Of a stretch of DNA of 41,555 bases, positions 4,596 through 11,364 are shown piece after piece. The stretch lies in the IMG/VR virus record IMGVR_UViG_2698536372_000033. One strand, 5' to 3'. Under the pieces are notes generated by a model. The model had not been told where the DNA came from. It was given only the letters and a program-made list of their open reading frames with translations, and searched no databases. Source of the DNA: a virus. Taxonomy: Duplodnaviria > Heunggongvirae > Uroviricota > Caudoviricetes. The translations under genes and the position numbers were made by a program. The stretch's first letter is position 1; every line of letters starts with the position of its first letter.

Positions 4596-4985
4596 ATGAT
4601 TGACGCTCATGACTTCACAAGATGGGTGCGCACACAGGACACCCGTCTGGCTCCCGTTCTTCAGGGATTATTTGATCTCTACATCCGTGGTCGTGACAAC
4701 AGAGCACGCACCACAAAACCGGAGAATGCAGACACCCTTTATTTCACAGTAGACGACTGCTACCGCGTGGACTTCACACCACACGGGCTGGCGTTGCACT
4801 GCCTGACACCACACGGCGAATCACTGCTGGCGTATTACGACTCCCCGGCCTCCATATTTGCGGCAATGCTGGCGCATCGCACTGCTGGCGGGTGTGCCTC
4901 GCTGAGTGAATACTCCGCTGAATTTAACCGCCTTTCCGCCCTCTTCTCACAGGAGTGGCAGCGCGTGACGGGATACCAGCCATGA
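4596..4985 (+). CDS. Hypothetical early-operon protein upstream of replication gene
   Basis: 129-aa ORF; stop overlaps ATG 4982 of the replication gene. Confidence 0.5.
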   Translation: MIDAHDFTRWVRTQDTRLAPVLQGLFDLYIRGRDNRARTTKPENADTLYFTVDDCYRVDFTPHGLALHCLTPHGESLLAYYDSPASIFAAMLAHRTAGGCASLSEYSAEFNRLSALFSQEWQRVTGYQP

Positions 4986-7822
4986 GTGCGTTTGCATGGA
5001 GCTGGAATGAACCACGGCCAGCCATTGATCCGGCCAGATTTACGGAGCGCAGGCAGGAAACTGAAACCGACCTGCAACGCGCCATCCGTTACTACCTTGA
5101 GGCAAACAAAAGGGCACAGGAAGAACAGGAAGCGAAGGAAGAAGCCTTTTTCGCACAATCCACCGTGGGTAAAAAACTCATGGCATCCCTTGAGGAAGCC
5201 GGACAGCGTGAAAAGCTGGCACAAAGCATCATCAGCAAGCGTCAGGCAACAGAACAAGACCCGGTGGCCCGTGCTTTTGCCACACTGAAGGTGCTTCCCG
5301 TTTATCTGCGTGAACCTCTGAGCCGCCACCTCTCTTTTCTGCGCAAGAAGCAGGAAGCCGATCGTCAGAAAGGCAAAAAGAGCTGGCAGGCTGAACGCTA
5401 CGCGCGCGGAACCCTGCGCAAAATATTCGAACGTCTGGACCGCACCGACAGCCGCTGGCTGACACCGGGCTATCGCTCCCTTGCCGGACGCGAACGCCTG
5501 GACGATTTGCTTTACCTGCCGCAGCTCAACAAACACCAGATACAGACGCTGGCCACCATGACGGCGGCGATGTTCAGTGGCACTTTTGAAAAACTCTGCG
5601 ATGGCTTTGGCGCGACCGATGGCGAGCTGACCATGGATGTAACGCTGAAGGCGTATCAGATGCTGGCCCGCATGGCGTTACACCTGCACGCTATGCCTCC
5701 ACATTATGACGCTCTGACAACAGACAAAGACCGGAGGAATGAACCGGACACGGAGCTGCTGCCGGGCGCAATCCTTCGCCTGACCTGTGCGGAATGGTGG
5801 AAACGCAAACTGTGGCTGTTACGTTGCGAGTGGAGAGAAGAACAACTCCGCGCCGCCTGTCTGGTTTCCAGAAAAACATCACCCTATCTGAGCCAGGACG
5901 CGTTAAGCGAGTTTCGCGCACAGCGCGAGAAAACACGCGATTTCCTGAAAAGTTTCATGCTGGAAAACGAAGACGGGTTCACGATTGATCTCGAGACAGT
6001 GTATTACGCGGGAGTAAGTAACCCGATTCACCGTAAGGCAGAAATGATGGCCACCATGAAGGGGCTGGAACTTCTGGCCGAAGCCCGTGGCGACAGAGCG
6101 GTGTTTCTGACTGTCACCTGCCCGTCAAAATACCACGCCACAACAGAGAACGGTCATCCGAATCCCAAATGGAACGGGGCCACCATGCGCGACTCCAGCG
6201 ATTACCTGGTTAACACGTTTTTTGCGGCGGTCCGCAAGAAACTGAACCGCGACGGCCTGCGCTGGTATGGCATCCGCACGGTGGAGCCTCACCATGACGG
6301 CACCGTGCACTGGCATATGATGGTCTTTGCTCATCCGGAAGAAATCGACACCATTGTGTCCCACACCCGCGATATTGCCATTCAGGAAGACCGCCACGAG
6401 CTGGGCAATGATATTACTCCGCGCTTTAAGGTGGAGTATGTCGACGGCTCAAAAGGCACGCCAACCAGCTACATCGCCACCTACATCGGAAAGAACCTGG
6501 ACAGCCGCGCCGTGGATGGCATCGACCCGAAAACGGGCAAGCCACGCGTTGACCACGAAACCGGAAAATCAATGGCCGAGAGCGTGGAACGCGCCATCGG
6601 CTGGGCACGCCTTCACCGGGTCCGCCAGTTCCAGTTCTTTGGCATCCCCTCCCGTCAGGTATGGCGTGAACTCCGCCGCCTTGCCAGCCAGATGGCACGC
6701 AACCCGGAAGGCCCACAACGGCTGAAGGATGATGCAATGGATGCGGTACTCGCTGCCGCTGATGCCGGGTGTTTTGCCACCTACATTGAGAAACAGGGCG
6801 GCGTACTTGTTCCACGCAAAGACTACCTGATTCGCACCGCCTACGACCTCGCAGATGAGCTGAACGATTACGGCGAACAGAGCGTACAGATTTACGGGAT
6901 CTGGTCACCACTCATCGGGGAATCCTCCCGTGTGTGCACGCACCCGGATAACTGGAAGCTGGTAAGACGTAAACCGGAAGCGGAAGACAGCACCCGCGAA
7001 AATGGTTTTGACCTTCAGGGCGGCCCTGCCGCCCCTTGGACTCGTGGCAATAACTGTCCCCGTGTACAGGAAACGGACAACAACGGGACAGAACAGCCGG
7101 AAGAAAGGCCAGCACCGTGGCCGCAGCTTCCTGACGGCGTTGACGTGAATGAATGGATGCGCTCACTGAAACGGCACGAACGCCGGGCGCTGATGCGTTC
7201 GCTGCGTGACAAACAGGCAAAAAACAGCAGTGATGAAATGCAGAACTGGACACAGAGCCGCAAACAGCCACGGCCTTTGCCTGATAATCACGAGTTACTC
7301 GCTAAAGAATGGCGGGAGTCTGCTGAATCTCTCGGCCTGCATATCGGTGAACAGCAGATGCAGCACCTGTTACGGGGCGGCAGTCTGTACGTTGACGGCA
7401 GCATCATTGCACCGCAGGGATTTGAAATTGTACGCAAACCAGATACCCGCCCGGACAGCCGAATCACGCAACTCTGGCAGCGCCTGAGCCGTAATCACGG
7501 CGTAAGCAGCACGGAGATCCGCCATAACCCGGTCGCCAGCTATCTGGAACAGCTGGGGGCATCAGACCCCGAAGCCGCCGCACACCTGGCATCCACACTT
7601 CAGCAGGACCAGAACACCATGAAAACCCCCGTTACCGTGCTTTCTGACATGCTGCGCGCCATCCGTGACGCAGTGCACGCACAGAGAATCAGTGAAACCA
7701 CTGAACGCGCCCACCGCAAAGCAGACCTGCTGCGGGGTAGCCTGACCAGTGGAAACAAAAAACAGACAGAAACGGGACTCACAAATCCCGTAAATGAGCA
7801 AAAAACGTGCCGCGATATATGA
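4982..7822 (+). CDS. A: Replication initiation endonuclease (P2 gpA-like rolling-circle initiator)
   Basis: About 950-aa ORF in the P2 gene A position; contains histidine-hydrophobic motif HWHMMVFAH typical of rolling-circle initiators; start uncertain (ATG 4982 or in-frame GTG 4955). Confidence 0.85.
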   Translation: MSAFAWSWNEPRPAIDPARFTERRQETETDLQRAIRYYLEANKRAQEEQEAKEEAFFAQSTVGKKLMASLEEAGQREKLAQSIISKRQATEQDPVARAFATLKVLPVYLREPLSRHLSFLRKKQEADRQKGKKSWQAERYARGTLRKIFERLDRTDSRWLTPGYRSLAGRERLDDLLYLPQLNKHQIQTLATMTAAMFSGTFEKLCDGFGATDGELTMDVTLKAYQMLARMALHLHAMPPHYDALTTDKDRRNEPDTELLPGAILRLTCAEWWKRKLWLLRCEWREEQLRAACLVSRKTSPYLSQDALSEFRAQREKTRDFLKSFMLENEDGFTIDLETVYYAGVSNPIHRKAEMMATMKGLELLAEARGDRAVFLTVTCPSKYHATTENGHPNPKWNGATMRDSSDYLVNTFFAAVRKKLNRDGLRWYGIRTVEPHHDGTVHWHMMVFAHPEEIDTIVSHTRDIAIQEDRHELGNDITPRFKVEYVDGSKGTPTSYIATYIGKNLDSRAVDGIDPKTGKPRVDHETGKSMAESVERAIGWARLHRVRQFQFFGIPSRQVWRELRRLASQMARNPEGPQRLKDDAMDAVLAAADAGCFATYIEKQGGVLVPRKDYLIRTAYDLADELNDYGEQSVQIYGIWSPLIGESSRVCTHPDNWKLVRRKPEAEDSTRENGFDLQGGPAAPWTRGNNCPRVQETDNNGTEQPEERPAPWPQLPDGVDVNEWMRSLKRHERRALMRSLRDKQAKNSSDEMQNWTQSRKQPRPLPDNHELLAKEWRESAESLGLHIGEQQMQHLLRGGSLYVDGSIIAPQGFEIVRKPDTRPDSRITQLWQRLSRNHGVSSTEIRHNPVASYLEQLGASDPEAAAHLASTLQQDQNTMKTPVTVLSDMLRAIRDAVHAQRISETTERAHRKADLLRGSLTSGNKKQTETGLTNPVNEQKTCRDI

Positions 7823-7898
7823 AGCGCGCACAAAACAGGCAAAAGCGGGATTTAAAAATCCTGTAACCGATTAATTAATCAACACAAGGAAAAGCGAC

Positions 7899-8858
7899 AT
7901 GAAAATTTGTATCGACGACGGCTCCACCAACATCAAGCTGGCATGGACTGAGAACGGCGAACGCCGCAACGCCATCAGCCCGAACAGCTTCAAGTCGGAA
8001 TGGTCTGCGCCGTTCGGTGGCACGCAGCCCGCGAACTACATGCTTGATGGCGTGCGCTATGGTTTTGATCCGGTCAGCGATCGCTTTGTCCAGACGACCG
8101 ACACGCAATACCAGTACAGCGATGTGAATATAATTGCCATTCATCACGCGCTGGTCAAATCAGGCATCACACCACAGGAAGTGGATGTGGTTGTCACCCT
8201 GCCACTGAGCGAGTATTTCGATACAAACGCACAGCCGGACATGGCCAACATCAACCGCAAAAAAGCGAACGTCATGCGCCCGGTGGAGTACCAGAACGGC
8301 GAAGCATTCACTATCCGTAACGTACGGGTTATGCCTGAATCCATTCCGGCTGGCTTTAAGGCACTGGCTGACATGAGTCCGTTTGAATCCCTGCTGATTG
8401 TGGATTTGGGCGGAACCACTCTGGATGTGGCAAAGGTTCAGGGGCAACTGGCAGGTATCAGCCAGGTGTTTTGCGATCCACACGTGGGCGTTTCTCTGAT
8501 GGCCGATGCCGTACTGTCGGTGATGGCCACTAACGGTATGCGCACCAGTCACCACATCGCCAATACCATTATCGAACATCGCCATGATGAAGCCTGGCTG
8601 CGCCAGCACATCCACAATGACGCGCATTACGCCAGCCTGATGGCGGTTATTCGTGAAAAGGAAGAAACACTGAAACAACGCGTGATCCGCGCGCTGGCGG
8701 GTTTTTCGGGTTACGGGCGGGTGATGGTTGTCGGTGGAGGGGCGGAGATTGTGGCACCCGCTATCCGCGAAGCCTGCGGAGTTAATGCGACTTTCATCGC
8801 GGACGGGGTGCCACAGTTTGCTCTGGTTAATGGGCTGTACGCAATGGACAAGGAGTAA
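7899..8858 (+). CDS. parM: ParM/StbA-like actin-family segregation ATPase
   Basis: 319 aa; N-terminus MKICIDDGSTNIKLAW and internal VMPESIPAG, DLGGTTLD, VMVVGGGAE closely follow plasmid R1 ParM as I recall it (phosphate-1, phosphate-2 and adenosine motifs of actin fold). Confidence 0.8.
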   Translation: MKICIDDGSTNIKLAWTENGERRNAISPNSFKSEWSAPFGGTQPANYMLDGVRYGFDPVSDRFVQTTDTQYQYSDVNIIAIHHALVKSGITPQEVDVVVTLPLSEYFDTNAQPDMANINRKKANVMRPVEYQNGEAFTIRNVRVMPESIPAGFKALADMSPFESLLIVDLGGTTLDVAKVQGQLAGISQVFCDPHVGVSLMADAVLSVMATNGMRTSHHIANTIIEHRHDEAWLRQHIHNDAHYASLMAVIREKEETLKQRVIRALAGFSGYGRVMVVGGGAEIVAPAIREACGVNATFIADGVPQFALVNGLYAMDKE

Positions 8859-8862
8859 ACCA

Positions 8863-9174
8863 ATGACGACTCCAACCAGACGGATAAGTTTCTATCTGAA
8901 GCCCACCGCCGTCAAGAACGAAGGAGAAGCATGCGCCTGGCTGGACAGCCTTACACCAGAAGCCCGCAAAAGCGGCCAACGCGTGGCTTTTCTGGCCGGG
9001 CTGGCACTTCTGAAAATGAATCCGGCAGAGGCTTATCGACTGGCTGCATGGGCTGGTGATGAAGCGTTATCAGTGACACAAACCAGGACAGAACGCCCCG
9101 CATCACAGCCAGTATCAACCGCACAGATAACCAGTCAGATGGCCGGAAATATCCGGGCGTTATTTCCTGAATAA
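8863..9174 (+). CDS. parR: ParR-like adaptor/centromere-binding protein
   Basis: ATG at 8863, 7 nt after AGGAG and 4 nt after parM stop; 103 aa; RRISFYLKP...LDSLTPEARKS...AFLAGLALLK parallels R1 ParR N-terminus (RRTIAFKLNP...DSIPQGERS...AALTAGLALY); ORF-track start 8728 is too far upstream. Confidence 0.6.
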   Translation: MTTPTRRISFYLKPTAVKNEGEACAWLDSLTPEARKSGQRVAFLAGLALLKMNPAEAYRLAAWAGDEALSVTQTRTERPASQPVSTAQITSQMAGNIRALFPE

Positions 9175-9192
9175 CACAACATCAGGGCGAGT

Positions 9193-9210
9193 TCGCCCTG
9201 CTCTCCACCT
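9193..9210. repeat. Hairpin CAGGGCGA..TCGCCCTG, left copy of a pair flanking gene 9238-9828
   Basis: Inverted repeat read directly; same stem sequence recurs at 9841-9866. Confidence 0.5.
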
Positions 9211-9237
9211 CAGAACATAAACAAGGAGAACGACTTA

Positions 9238-9828
9238 ATGAGCGAAATCAACTATCAGGCATTACGTGAACGTTATTCACCTGTGCCAGTACCGAAATGC
9301 CCTATTTGCGGCGAGGAAATGTCAATTCAGCGAATATCTGGAGCACAGGTTGTTTATGCCTGCTCCGGTTATGGTGATGATGGAGATTTCAAAATTGGCC
9401 GAACTCTTGCCGACGAACATTATGAAAAATCACGCGTAACAGTGTTGGATGTCGGGGATCCTGAAGTATTGGCGCTACTTGATTGGCTGGAAACCAAAGA
9501 CAACCGAATCGCTGAACTGGAAAAAATCGCCACTGACTATGCACTTAAATTCCAGAAAGCACAGGACGCATTAAAGTATGCCGCTTTGCTGCATAGCAGG
9601 ACGGCGCAACAAACAAATAATTTTGCAGTATCGCTTCCGGACATAAGCGAATATTTCATTAATGACGTATTTCAGCCCTTGCGATACGAGCGGGATGTTG
9701 AAAGAGCCATCATAAAGGCTGGCGGAAAAGCATTGTGGCAGGAGAAACACGAGGACAGAACGCATCAGTCCTGCGATGTAAATCGTGGATGGTTTAGCCC
9801 ACTGACGACAGATAAAAATAACACCTGA
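9238..9828 (+). CDS. Hypothetical protein with N-terminal Cys-rich (zinc-ribbon-like) segment and coiled-coil
   Basis: 196 aa; CPICGEE...YACSG; RBS AAGGAGA upstream; flanked by similar hairpins. Confidence 0.55.
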   Translation: MSEINYQALRERYSPVPVPKCPICGEEMSIQRISGAQVVYACSGYGDDGDFKIGRTLADEHYEKSRVTVLDVGDPEVLALLDWLETKDNRIAELEKIATDYALKFQKAQDALKYAALLHSRTAQQTNNFAVSLPDISEYFINDVFQPLRYERDVERAIIKAGGKALWQEKHEDRTHQSCDVNRGWFSPLTTDKNNT

Positions 9829-9840
9829 TCCCCCTCAAAC

Positions 9841-9866
9841 CAGGGCGATAATCGCGCATCGCCCTG
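9841..9866. repeat. Hairpin CAGGGCGAT-N8-ATCGCCCTG, right copy flanking gene 9238-9828
   Basis: Inverted repeat read directly; stem matches 9193-9210. Confidence 0.5.
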
Positions 9867-10266
9867 CTGCACAATAGTGCACAAGTTTGCACAATTTTTT
9901 TGAACGACTTTTTACCCTTCCGGCCCGCATGGCGGCTGGATCCGTCAAGGATCCGTGCGTGCACAAAAAAACGCGCTTTTTCTGCGCGCAGGTGACGGGG
10001 GAACAGCCCGCGTTTCAGGGGGTAAATAGCATCCCCTGAACGATGTCGCAGCGACACAACAGAATGGCTGTATTTCTCACGCTGAGCGTGAAAAAGACGT
10101 GAGGGCTTTTGATTTGATGGGTGGCAGATAAGGCCGTCAAAATCGCACTGAGGCGGCGAGAACATGCAGTCAACGCGGTGGGATTGCGTAAGAGTCTGAC
10201 CGCCGATGATGACAATAAGCAGAAAAGCGTCGTGAAATTATCTGATTGATACAGGAGCTGGAGAGT

Positions 10267-10291
10267 CGGGGCATAAATTTTTTATGCCCCG
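10267..10291 (-). terminator. Stem-loop downstream of portal gene (possible terminator; putative cos region lies in 9867-10317 by synteny)
   Basis: CGGGGCATAAA-TTT-TTTATGCCCCG perfect inverted repeat 27 bp after Q stop on the minus strand. Confidence 0.4.
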
Positions 10292-10317
10292 GCGAAGCAG
10301 CAGACAAGCGAAGCGCG

Positions 10318-11364
10318 TCAGGATGTGGGCTGGGTATCTAGCAGTGCGTAAGGGTTAAAGCGGATCACCTCTTCGCCAAGCCAGTCATTGATGTGCTTCA
10401 TGGCCTCCATAACGGGCATCAGCTCGTTAATTGCGTAAACCCGCGCGGCCTTCTCCACATCACCAAACGCACTTTTTTCGCCCGGCATCGCCCCCATCAG
10501 TTGCGGCGGAACGCGGTGCGCAGCCAGCACATCATCACGGGATGCCGCCTTAACATTCATGAACTCATCCTTTGCAGTGATCTGCTGGAACGGCAAAATT
10601 TGCACACCTTCTTTGCCCCCGTTGGGCGCATGGATGAGTACGTTTTTAAACGCACCACCACCACGCGCGCCCTGTAACGTTTCTTTCAGGGAGTCCATGC
10701 TTTCGCGGTTTACCTGCGCTGCACCGATGTAGATGATGCACCCGGCGTGGGATCCGTTGTCGTAGTACAGTTTTCTGAACATGTCCGCCGAATGAGAAAG
10801 GCTGGCCGAGAGTAATGCGCCAAGATATTCCGGCATGCCGTAGATTTCCTGGTTAATATCCGGATTCATCAGGTGGCACACTTTGCCAGGGCGAAACTGG
10901 AACGCGTCCTTGCCATCCTGCACATACCACCATGATTCAAGATCGCTTCCGCGTCGCATGTATTTCGCCAGGGCGTGCCGTAATTTAAGCGGTTCGCCGA
11001 GCATATTACTTCTAAGCTCAAGGAATGCGTTACCGAACACAAACCAGTCCAGCGCCAGCGCCGAGAAATCCTGCCGGGAAAGCAGCGGGTGCGGGATGTA
11101 GCAACCGAGTAATACATTGCGCTTAAAGTAAAGCGCAGACTGATGCCAGGACGTTTGCCGGGCTGCTCTTGCCAGACCGTACCAGTCCACCGGGGTTTCA
11201 TACCACCGTCCGTTATCAGCACAGTACATATTGTCCAGCAGGTCATGCCCGGTCAGGCGATAAGGACCATCAAATGTGAATGCACTGAGCGATGATTCTT
11301 TCCTGAGCGCATCAGCGAGATCAATGCGTGAACTCATGCGCACTTTTTTATTTTTTCTGCTCAT
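10318..11364 (-). CDS. Q: Portal protein (P2 gpQ-like)
   Basis: 348 aa (P2 Q about 344 aa); immediately downstream of and overlapping the large terminase on the same strand, divergent from the scaffold/capsid operon, exactly as in P2. Confidence 0.85.
   Translation of the reverse strand: MSRKNKKVRMSSRIDLADALRKESSLSAFTFDGPYRLTGHDLLDNMYCADNGRWYETPVDWYGLARAARQTSWHQSALYFKRNVLLGCYIPHPLLSRQDFSALALDWFVFGNAFLELRSNMLGEPLKLRHALAKYMRRGSDLESWWYVQDGKDAFQFRPGKVCHLMNPDINQEIYGMPEYLGALLSASLSHSADMFRKLYYDNGSHAGCIIYIGAAQVNRESMDSLKETLQGARGGGAFKNVLIHAPNGGKEGVQILPFQQITAKDEFMNVKAASRDDVLAAHRVPPQLMGAMPGEKSAFGDVEKAARVYAINELMPVMEAMKHINDWLGEEVIRFNPYALLDTQPTS

Follow-up and report, generated by a model that had tools for sequence, protein, structure and literature searches.

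Gene content of the locus

The stretch of DNA analysed here, which we call the window, is 41.5 kb long and is a P88-like prophage (Xuanwuvirus, Peduoviridae, P2-family). The gene order around the locus is gpA, parM, parR, a hairpin (L), one open reading frame, a second hairpin (R1), TGCACAA repeats, a presumed cos site, portal and terminase. The coordinates of these features are collected in Table 1. ParM is the annotated name in P88 and its relatives as well. The parR-like gene (312 nt) has the identical position in all related loci and is the last conserved gene to the left of the slot, as we call the variable interval that follows. No evident iteron array was seen in the gap of 76 bp upstream of parM. 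In a blastn-level search for plasmid homologues of parR, every match that was examined, or that could be judged by its coverage, was a P88-like phage genome or prophage.

To the right of the slot, the TGCACAA repeats with their T7 run are the first conserved backbone, and they are kept in every related locus whatever the cargo. The terminator scan marked a weak terminator-like site at 9877-9892. The cos site is presumed to lie between 9901 and 9960, and the linear P88_4B11 record opens at window position 9912|9913. According to the list of open reading frames, the neighbours of the slot are parR and the portal gene, and no dedicated recombinase adjoins it. An Rfam search of positions 8700-10400 gave zero matches at E values up to 1.

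Table 1. Features of the slot and its flanks, in window coordinates.
Feature	Position	Strand	Basis or remark
gpA, replication endonuclease	4955-7822		list of open reading frames; annotation of relatives
parM, actin-like plasmid segregation ATPase, conserved left backbone	7899-8858	+	Pfam StbA_N (E 3.7e-82), ParM C-terminal domain (E 1.3e-68)
parR-like gene (StbB / plasmid stability protein)	8863-9174	+	Pfam Plasmid_stab_B (E 3.1e-23); PHROG 2515, partition protein (E 1.7e-57)
Left hairpin L, left slot edge, CAGGGCG-AGTT-CGCCCTG	9183-9200	.	pattern match and RNA fold
Leader of the cargo gene, Shine-Dalgarno AAGGAG at 9223-9228	9201-9237	+	direct sequence reading
Ead/Ea22-like protein, 196 aa, ATG start, current cargo of the slot	9238-9828	+	Pfam PF13935
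Right hairpin R1, right slot edge, CAGGGCGAT-AATCGCGC-ATCGCCCTG	9841-9866	.	pattern match and RNA fold
Three TGCACAA repeats with 10-bp phasing (9868-9894), then T7 run	9868-9901	+	
Fourth TGCACAA copy	9960-9966	+	
Strong intrinsic terminator, downstream of the portal gene	9989-9971	-	
Portal protein gene (gpQ), right-hand backbone of the hotspot	10318-11364	-	list of open reading frames; portal in the annotation of all relatives

The slot is currently occupied by an Ea22-like gene

The open reading frame between the hairpins gave a strong match to the Pfam family of lambda Ea22 and P22 Ead (PF13935; E 1.1e-31, 110.7 bits against a cutoff of 27, residues 2-140), and RefSeq names its product an ead/Ea22-like family protein. 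The protein carries an N-proximal zinc ribbon (CPICG...YACSG), which sister variants do not have. An alignment of the Ea22-like variants found in the slot revealed a mosaic: the N-terminal peptide and the C-terminal part are conserved, a coiled-coil region is present, and the middle (residues 11-80) is swapped. The cargo has a GC content of 45-47%, against 53-57% in the flanks. The protein has no match in PADLOC and is thus not a recognised defence gene, and its comparison with the PDB sequences returned no match to any solved structure, the C-terminal domain of lambda Ea22 included.

The leader of the gene has the motif ACATAAACAAGG in common with the leader of the P88-type cargo. A promoter scan of the plus strand from 7700 to 10400 found no site, so there is none between L and the ATG. 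This implies that the gene is reached by read-through from parMR.

Lambda Ea22 is described as a pro-lysogenic protein of the exo-xis region (PMC7093339, PMC10834534). This activity is known only from experiments with lambda and Stx phages (PMC7093339). The mosaic build of the slot variants fits the 'high sequence diversity' named in the title of PMC7093339. The present gene differs from lambda Ea22 in its location, a P2-family hotspot as opposed to the exo-xis region, and in the zinc ribbon. It is the slot's current, ordinary occupant.

Two matching hairpins flank the gene

A preliminary description of this DNA had placed the same hairpin on both sides of the open reading frame, and we could confirm this. 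The pattern CAGGGCGA-N(2-12)-TCGCCCTG has exactly two matches in the window, at 9183-9200 and 9841-9866, and it occurred in none of 100 dinucleotide-preserving shuffles. The left copy reads CAGGGCGA-GT-TCGCCCTG (full sequence CAGGGCGAGTTCGCCCTG) and is a perfect 8+2+8 palindrome, and the right copy reads CAGGGCGA-TAATCGCGCA-TCGCCCTG (full sequence CAGGGCGATAATCGCGCATCGCCCTG). Both are trailed by CT, which gives them a common 3' decamer, TCGCCCTGCT, at 9193-9202 and 9859-9868. The two hairpins, 658 bp apart, thus have ten identical bases, the 8-bp arm and CT. The word CAGGGCGA is found 8 times in the window, where 1.3 occurrences are expected, and the hairpin arms account for four of them. Some of the earlier measurements had to be corrected: position 9193, which had been taken as the start, belongs to the 3' arm of L, and L itself begins at 9183, 9 nt after the parR stop codon. 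From the end of L to the ATG we counted 37 nt (35 nt when the trailing CT is included) and not 28, and R1 starts 12 nt, rather than 13, after the stop codon of the open reading frame.

Folded as RNA, the left copy forms a 7-bp stem with a 4-nt loop (-13 kcal/mol, z = -3.5), and the right copy forms a 9-bp stem with an 8-nt loop within a structure of -22.5 kcal/mol (z = -4.6). The spacing between the arms is 2-4 bp in L and 8-10 bp in R1. Both have the GC-rich stem-loop of an intrinsic terminator, and neither has the 3' U-tract on the plus strand, where CTCTCCACC follows L and CTGCACAAT follows R1. Since both stand after plus-strand genes, the missing plus-strand U-tract means that neither L nor R1 is a canonical intrinsic terminator of the transcript that it ends. 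On the minus strand L is followed by ATGTTGTGTT, and it passes a simple terminator scan only on this strand. R1 has no U-tract on either strand and passes the terminator scan on neither.

Beyond the arms, local alignment of L with R1 gave no clear similarity. The sole match of their upstream flanks is AATAACAC (p ~0.04 against random windows). An extended duplication of L and R1 is unproven, since the local alignment returned the arms only and the flank match is weak.

The slot is hypervariable among related phages

We gathered about 85 related loci from INPHARED phages, from IMG/VR by way of the ParR protein and from one Salmonella genome. The stretch that varies among them runs from the parR stop codon to the TGCACAA repeats, and at least 20 different layouts were counted in it, with genes on either strand. 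Between identical flanks, the size of the cargo ranges from a 19-codon remnant to 3.7 kb. The cargo of sister loci includes defence matches to IetA/IetS, AbiL, an RmrA-like system and PDC-M04, where the RmrA-like cargo contains a second open reading frame that lay outside the defence scan.

Rousset et al. 2022 (PMC9122126) described the gpA-gpQ interval beside cos in P2-like phages as a hotspot of anti-phage systems. The slot of the window lies in this interval, adjacent to the presumed cos, and its gene content varies among syntenic relatives, in which, as in the published hotspot, many unrelated gene sets are found and anti-phage systems are among them. Defence content is thus present in the sister loci and not, by PADLOC, in the window's own cargo. 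Here, the slot differs from the published hotspot in that parM-parR lies between gpA and the slot, in that the edges carry short conserved stem-loops, and in its Ea22-like cargo. Neither PMC9122126 nor its 2026 NAR follow-up (PMC13586616) mentions terminators, hairpins or palindromes at the hotspot edges, and both leave the mechanism of cargo exchange open. A definition of the slot edges at base-pair level in P88-like phages has apparently not been described before.

L belongs to the partition module and R1 to the right-hand backbone

In most loci L sits after the parR stop codon regardless of the cargo. It was found with Ea22-like, ClpX-zinc-finger, IetAS, toxin-antitoxin-like (TA-like), RmrA-like and other cargo. 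Besides the present type, it stands ahead of at least nine other cargo types, and it belongs to the parMR side. Across 11 classes of left junctions, the majority match was 0.99 in the arms, 0.66 in the loop and about 0.58 in the next 40 nt. Since the arms are conserved and the sequence downstream falls to about 0.58, the homology between cargo classes ends at the 3' edge of L.

L exists in ten sequence variants with a near-invariant stem and the loops AGTT, CATC, TATC, TATT, GGTT, AACT and GAAAC. The stem has one compensatory change, from G-C to A-T, in loci of the TA type. The eighth pair can be A-T, G-C or a mismatch, and one G-U variant is also present. A covariation test found only this single compensatory pair, and 38 of 500 shuffles reached the observed covariation score, so that covariation lends the stem little support. 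L was also kept in the Salmonella relative, and a ParR-based search of genome contigs yielded only 3 loci, not enough to extend the covariation test. The arms are constant in E. coli, Salmonella and Citrobacter relatives and the loops drift, which argues that this stem in particular is constrained. A given parR allele can be found next to different loops and cargo, and vice versa, indicating frequent recombination at the slot edge. L is missing in some loci in which parMR is intact (L002, L005, L007 and L126), hence it is not essential to the partition module.

R1 is directly followed by CTGCACAATAG in all 31 IMG/VR copies, and because of this constant fusion we count it as part of the right-hand backbone. 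Several Ea22-like variants end at R1, as do a three-gene cargo whose last gene is Ea22-like, an unrelated two-gene cargo with a toxin-antitoxin-like layout (L024/L041) and loci without L. At least four alternative hairpins can occupy the right end; besides R1 these include the sister alleles R2, R3 and R4 at the same position. R2 reads AACGCCCT-CTTCC-AGGGCGTT-TATTT, and the stems of R3 and R4 use GCGCC/GGCGC. All three are canonical terminators with T-runs.

The hairpins are not the two ends of a cassette

Across the related loci L and R1 assort independently. The change in the L stem of the TA-type loci L024 and L127 has no mirror change in the R1 of the same loci, and most cargo is found with L and a non-matching right end, or without L. 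In the multi-gene cargos (L001-L008) there are no internal hairpin copies, only those at the junctions.

We looked for an empty site, composed of parR, one hairpin and the TGCACAA repeats, and found none in IMG/VR, the JGI metagenomes and 5,426 E. coli genomes. In the E. coli genomes a synthetic junction query was used, and its best full-length matches were two-piece, 93% identical joins across short cargo. A near-empty slot is present in E. coli ETEC1701, where a 19-codon remnant lies between L and the R2 terminator. Here the edges persist without cargo, and the hairpins therefore belong to the backbone and are not carried along as the ends of a cassette. A mobile cassette with both hairpins is ruled out by the independent assortment and by the fixation of R1 to the TGCACAA repeats.

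The matching stem-loops had been proposed to mark a cassette boundary or a shared regulatory or recombination site, which a comparison of related prophages should reveal. The boundary stands insofar as the hairpins coincide with the edges of a segment that differs between prophages, and the comparison did find unrelated cargo that ends at the same R1. The same comparison produced no empty site with a single hairpin, and the segment is not a discrete cassette with both hairpins. As for a recombination site, nothing shows that the hairpins act as such mechanistically. The matching hairpins thus form part of the backbone, as edge elements of a hotspot already known, and do not belong to a mobile cassette as its ends.

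Integron attC sites measure about 57-141 bp, have paired R and L boxes at each cassette end and come with an adjacent IntI integrase. The slot resembles an integron in that palindromes stand at the ends of exchangeable genes. However, its stems are perfect and only 18 and 26 nt long, have no R/L boxes or extrahelical bases, and are accompanied by no integron integrase. There are only two copies, at fixed backbone positions, and multi-gene cargos are without internal sites. We rejected an integron gene cassette on the stem size, the neighbours (parR and portal) and the missing internal copies.

Each hairpin occupies one place per E. coli genome

The preliminary description had set a search of the host genome as its own test, with a repeat scattered through that genome as the adverse outcome. 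L was found in 441 and R1 in 181 of the 5,426 E. coli genomes, each at one place per genome (median 1, maximum 2-3 for the hairpins). Among the E. coli matches of L that were listed, every one overlaps a partition-protein gene. Since each hairpin occurs once per genome, a dispersed host repeat is ruled out, and the claim passed this test. REP and BIME elements are short GC-rich extragenic palindromes with many dispersed copies per host genome and can stabilise upstream mRNA. L and R1 are likewise short GC-rich palindromes without U-tracts, but they are confined to one place per genome, this prophage locus. They are thus not REP/BIME-type dispersed repeats.

Discussion

We propose that L and R1 are conserved edge elements of the cos-proximal accessory and defence slot of P88-like phages, and that they probably serve as transcript-end insulators at which cargo-swapping recombination resolves. 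We assign this reading a probability of roughly 0.55. L would close the parM-parR module, and R1 would belong to a set of alternative stem-loops, each of which ends the slot just ahead of the TGCACAA repeats and the presumed cos. Both would most likely work in the RNA, by forming transcript ends or insulators. L could shield the partition operon from the slot contents, that is, from antisense or read-in transcription. For leftward transcription it would be terminator-like, and for rightward transcription a 3'-protective stem-loop that allows read-through, so it may stabilise the 3' end of the partition operon. The cargo gene on the plus strand, with its ribosome-binding site and no detectable promoter, would still be reached by read-through across L. 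R1 would cap rightward cargo transcripts at the position where its sister alleles have canonical terminators.

Cargo would be swapped between co-resident P2-like phages by homologous recombination in the conserved flanks, the route suggested by the hotspot papers (PMC9122126, PMC13586616). This would explain why the homology breakpoints fall at the hairpins, as the stems are the last bases common to genomes with different cargo.

An insulator role does not explain why the 8-bp stem and the trailing CT are identical in L and R1. For this identity an old duplication of a single backbone hairpin seems to us more likely than a binding factor or function common to both, or than chance, although the flank homology (p ~0.04) does not suffice as proof. 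That L and R1 are two independent, ordinary gene-end stem-loops, whose stems match by coincidence or by convergence of GC-rich terminator-like stems, seems to us rather unlikely. Such an origin would suit their separate assortment without co-variation, the restriction of the similarity to the arms and the similar GC-rich words in other right ends (AACGCCCT/AGGGCGTT in R2, GCGCC/GGCGC in R3 and R4). It has to contend, however, with ten identical bases 658 bp apart, with shuffles that did not contain even one pattern match, with the excess of CAGGGCGA in the window, four copies of which are the arms, and with arms that, unlike the drifting loops, are fixed in E. coli, Salmonella and Citrobacter relatives.

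The hairpins could also be active recombination sites, where a stem folded in single-stranded DNA or as a cruciform is used by a recombinase, by an HUH nuclease or in template switching, in an attC-like exchange that would insert, excise or replace genes exactly at the stems. The identical 8-bp stem with CT, which is unlikely by chance, speaks for such sites, and so do the breaks in the homology of cargo classes within a few bases of the stems. One hybrid junction (L151) joins a P88-type loop to an Ea22-type downstream sequence, and in L156 the loop is exactly inverted, from GT to AC, as template switching within a palindrome predicts. The gpA of this phage, which we take to be an HUH-type replication nickase, could supply an enzyme, and the exchange mechanism left open in the hotspot papers gives room for one. 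Against this speak the lack of a single-hairpin empty site in the three collections, a near-empty slot that retains two different hairpins (L and R2), the independence of L and R1 with most cargo lacking a matching pair, and the confinement of the hairpins to this one locus. The multi-gene cargos without internal copies, the slot without a dedicated recombinase beside it and stems of 18-26 nt without attC-type boxes argue in the same direction. We consider active recombination sites improbable, and slightly more so the specific version in which the CAGGGCG/CGCCCTG stem serves for structure-specific recombination or template switching and so mediates gene insertion and replacement at the cos-proximal hotspot.

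Very improbable, finally, is that the palindromes are double-stranded binding sites of a phage protein, such as a ParR centromere (parC) or an operator of the slot. The position of L, 9 bp after parR in most loci, the lack of an evident iteron array in the gap upstream of parM and the perfect palindrome in the window would agree with a binding site. The known targets of type II ParR proteins are arrays of direct iterons, not a single inverted repeat. L and R1 each consist of one inverted repeat, and their arm spacing is unequal, which does not fit a type II parC. Their spacing (2-4 bp against 8-10 bp) is incompatible with one dimer geometry, the bases at the centre vary freely, and several loci with intact parMR have no L. 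The phased TGCACAA repeats are a better centromere-like candidate than L.

As backbone edge elements, the hairpins invite a comparison with the morons of Juhala and Hendrix, accessory genes between backbone genes which reportedly have, as a rule, their own promoter, a factor-independent terminator and a base composition unlike that of the backbone. The slot of the window likewise holds a single accessory gene of lower GC content between backbone genes, followed by a GC-rich stem-loop. It differs in that there is no promoter-like site, that the stem-loop has no U-tract and that the downstream hairpin is fixed to the backbone and not to the gene. As a kind of feature the edge hairpins are ordinary, because conserved stems that resemble terminators are familiar where the modules of mosaic phage genomes meet. 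With a flanked gene of a known family, the result is tidy and unsurprising.

The cos-proximal hotspot of the P2 family is an established reservoir of anti-phage systems. If true, stem-directed recombination would give this defence hotspot a defined mechanism of cassette exchange in place of generic homologous recombination in the flanks. In the P88-like lineage the edges of the slot are now placed at base-pair resolution, on the left by a conserved stem-loop that follows parR and on the right by a hairpin joined directly to the TGCACAA repeats. With these anchor points, cargo can be mined precisely from thousands of prophages, and exchange experiments gain a pair of elements to mutate.

Cargo variants and hairpins at the slot edges

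The window carries an Ea22-like gene (9238-9828) in the variable cargo slot, which extends from parR to the TGCACAA repeats. When its product was compared with the Ea22-like slot proteins of four related loci (L014, L065, L169 and L170), the first ten residues (1-10) and a C-terminal part of ~110 residues were common to all of them, whereas residues ~11-80 were replaced. The CPICG...YACSG zinc ribbon was present only in the window's variant.

In E. coli ETEC1701 (locus L182, 1518-1670) the hotspot is nearly empty: all that remains in the slot is a 19-codon ORF, which is still flanked by the left hairpin L and by R2, a canonical terminator that occupies the position of the right hairpin R1 in sister loci. 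This ORF appears to be a fusion in which the 5' end of a ClpX-zinc-finger gene is followed by the 3' end of a different cargo gene.

The P88-type right-end terminator, found at the right junction of phage P88 (L001) and at 1641-1670 of L182, has the form AACGCCCT-CTTCC-AGGGCGTT. Its arms contain the AGGGCG/CGCCCT hexamers that also occur in L and R1, but the arm order is swapped. Therefore, in P88 too, the hairpins on the two sides of the cargo are made from one and the same pair of hexamers.

At the left junction of another related locus, L156, at the position of window 9183-9200, we observed the hairpin CAGGGCGA-AC-TCGCCCTG, with the loop AC where the window has GT. This is an exact inversion of GT, a signature of template switching or of inversion within a perfect palindrome.

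The region around the presumed cos

The TGCACAA repeats stand on both sides of the presumed cos, and they are kept in all P88-like loci compared, independently of the cargo. No enrichment of the heptamer was observed at other places in the window. The repeats could be a terminase-binding (cosB-like) site or a parC-like centromere. The terminator just ahead of the presumed cos probably marks the end of the leftward late (terminase-portal) operon.

Repeats and terminator around the presumed cos
Feature	Window position	Strand	Location	Remarks
TGCACAA x3 and T7 run	9868-9901		left of presumed cos	repeat phasing exactly 10 bp
TGCACAA, fourth copy	9960-9966		right of presumed cos	
Canonical intrinsic terminator, strong	9971-9989	minus	downstream of portal gene	GCGCGCAGAAAAAGCGCGT then TTTTTTT

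Four IMG/VR loci with TA-like cargo (L024, L041, L127 and L130) lack 82 bp between the second and the fourth TGCACAA, corresponding to window 9885-9966, and the genome ends of P88_4B11 fall inside this missing stretch. These loci are probably cos-less, defective prophages which arose by recombination between the TGCACAA repeats.

P88-like sequences in other records

ParR proteins 91-94% identical to that of the window were found in two Firmicutes-labelled contigs, from Vagococcus sp. WN89Y (L169) and Fredinandcohnia humi (L171), the former with the complete L / Ea22-like / R1 arrangement. The P88-like sequence in both assemblies is probably contamination.

Two plasmid records also matched. NZ_CP148288.1 (L180), a circular, non-mobilizable 'plasmid' of 34,461 bp, carries gpA, parM, parR and terminase genes of the P88-like type, and its length is that of a full P88-like genome. 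The 26.7 kb Shigella boydii plasmid record NZ_CP049283.1 also matches this region. Such phages, which encode ParM/ParR, may persist as phage-plasmids.
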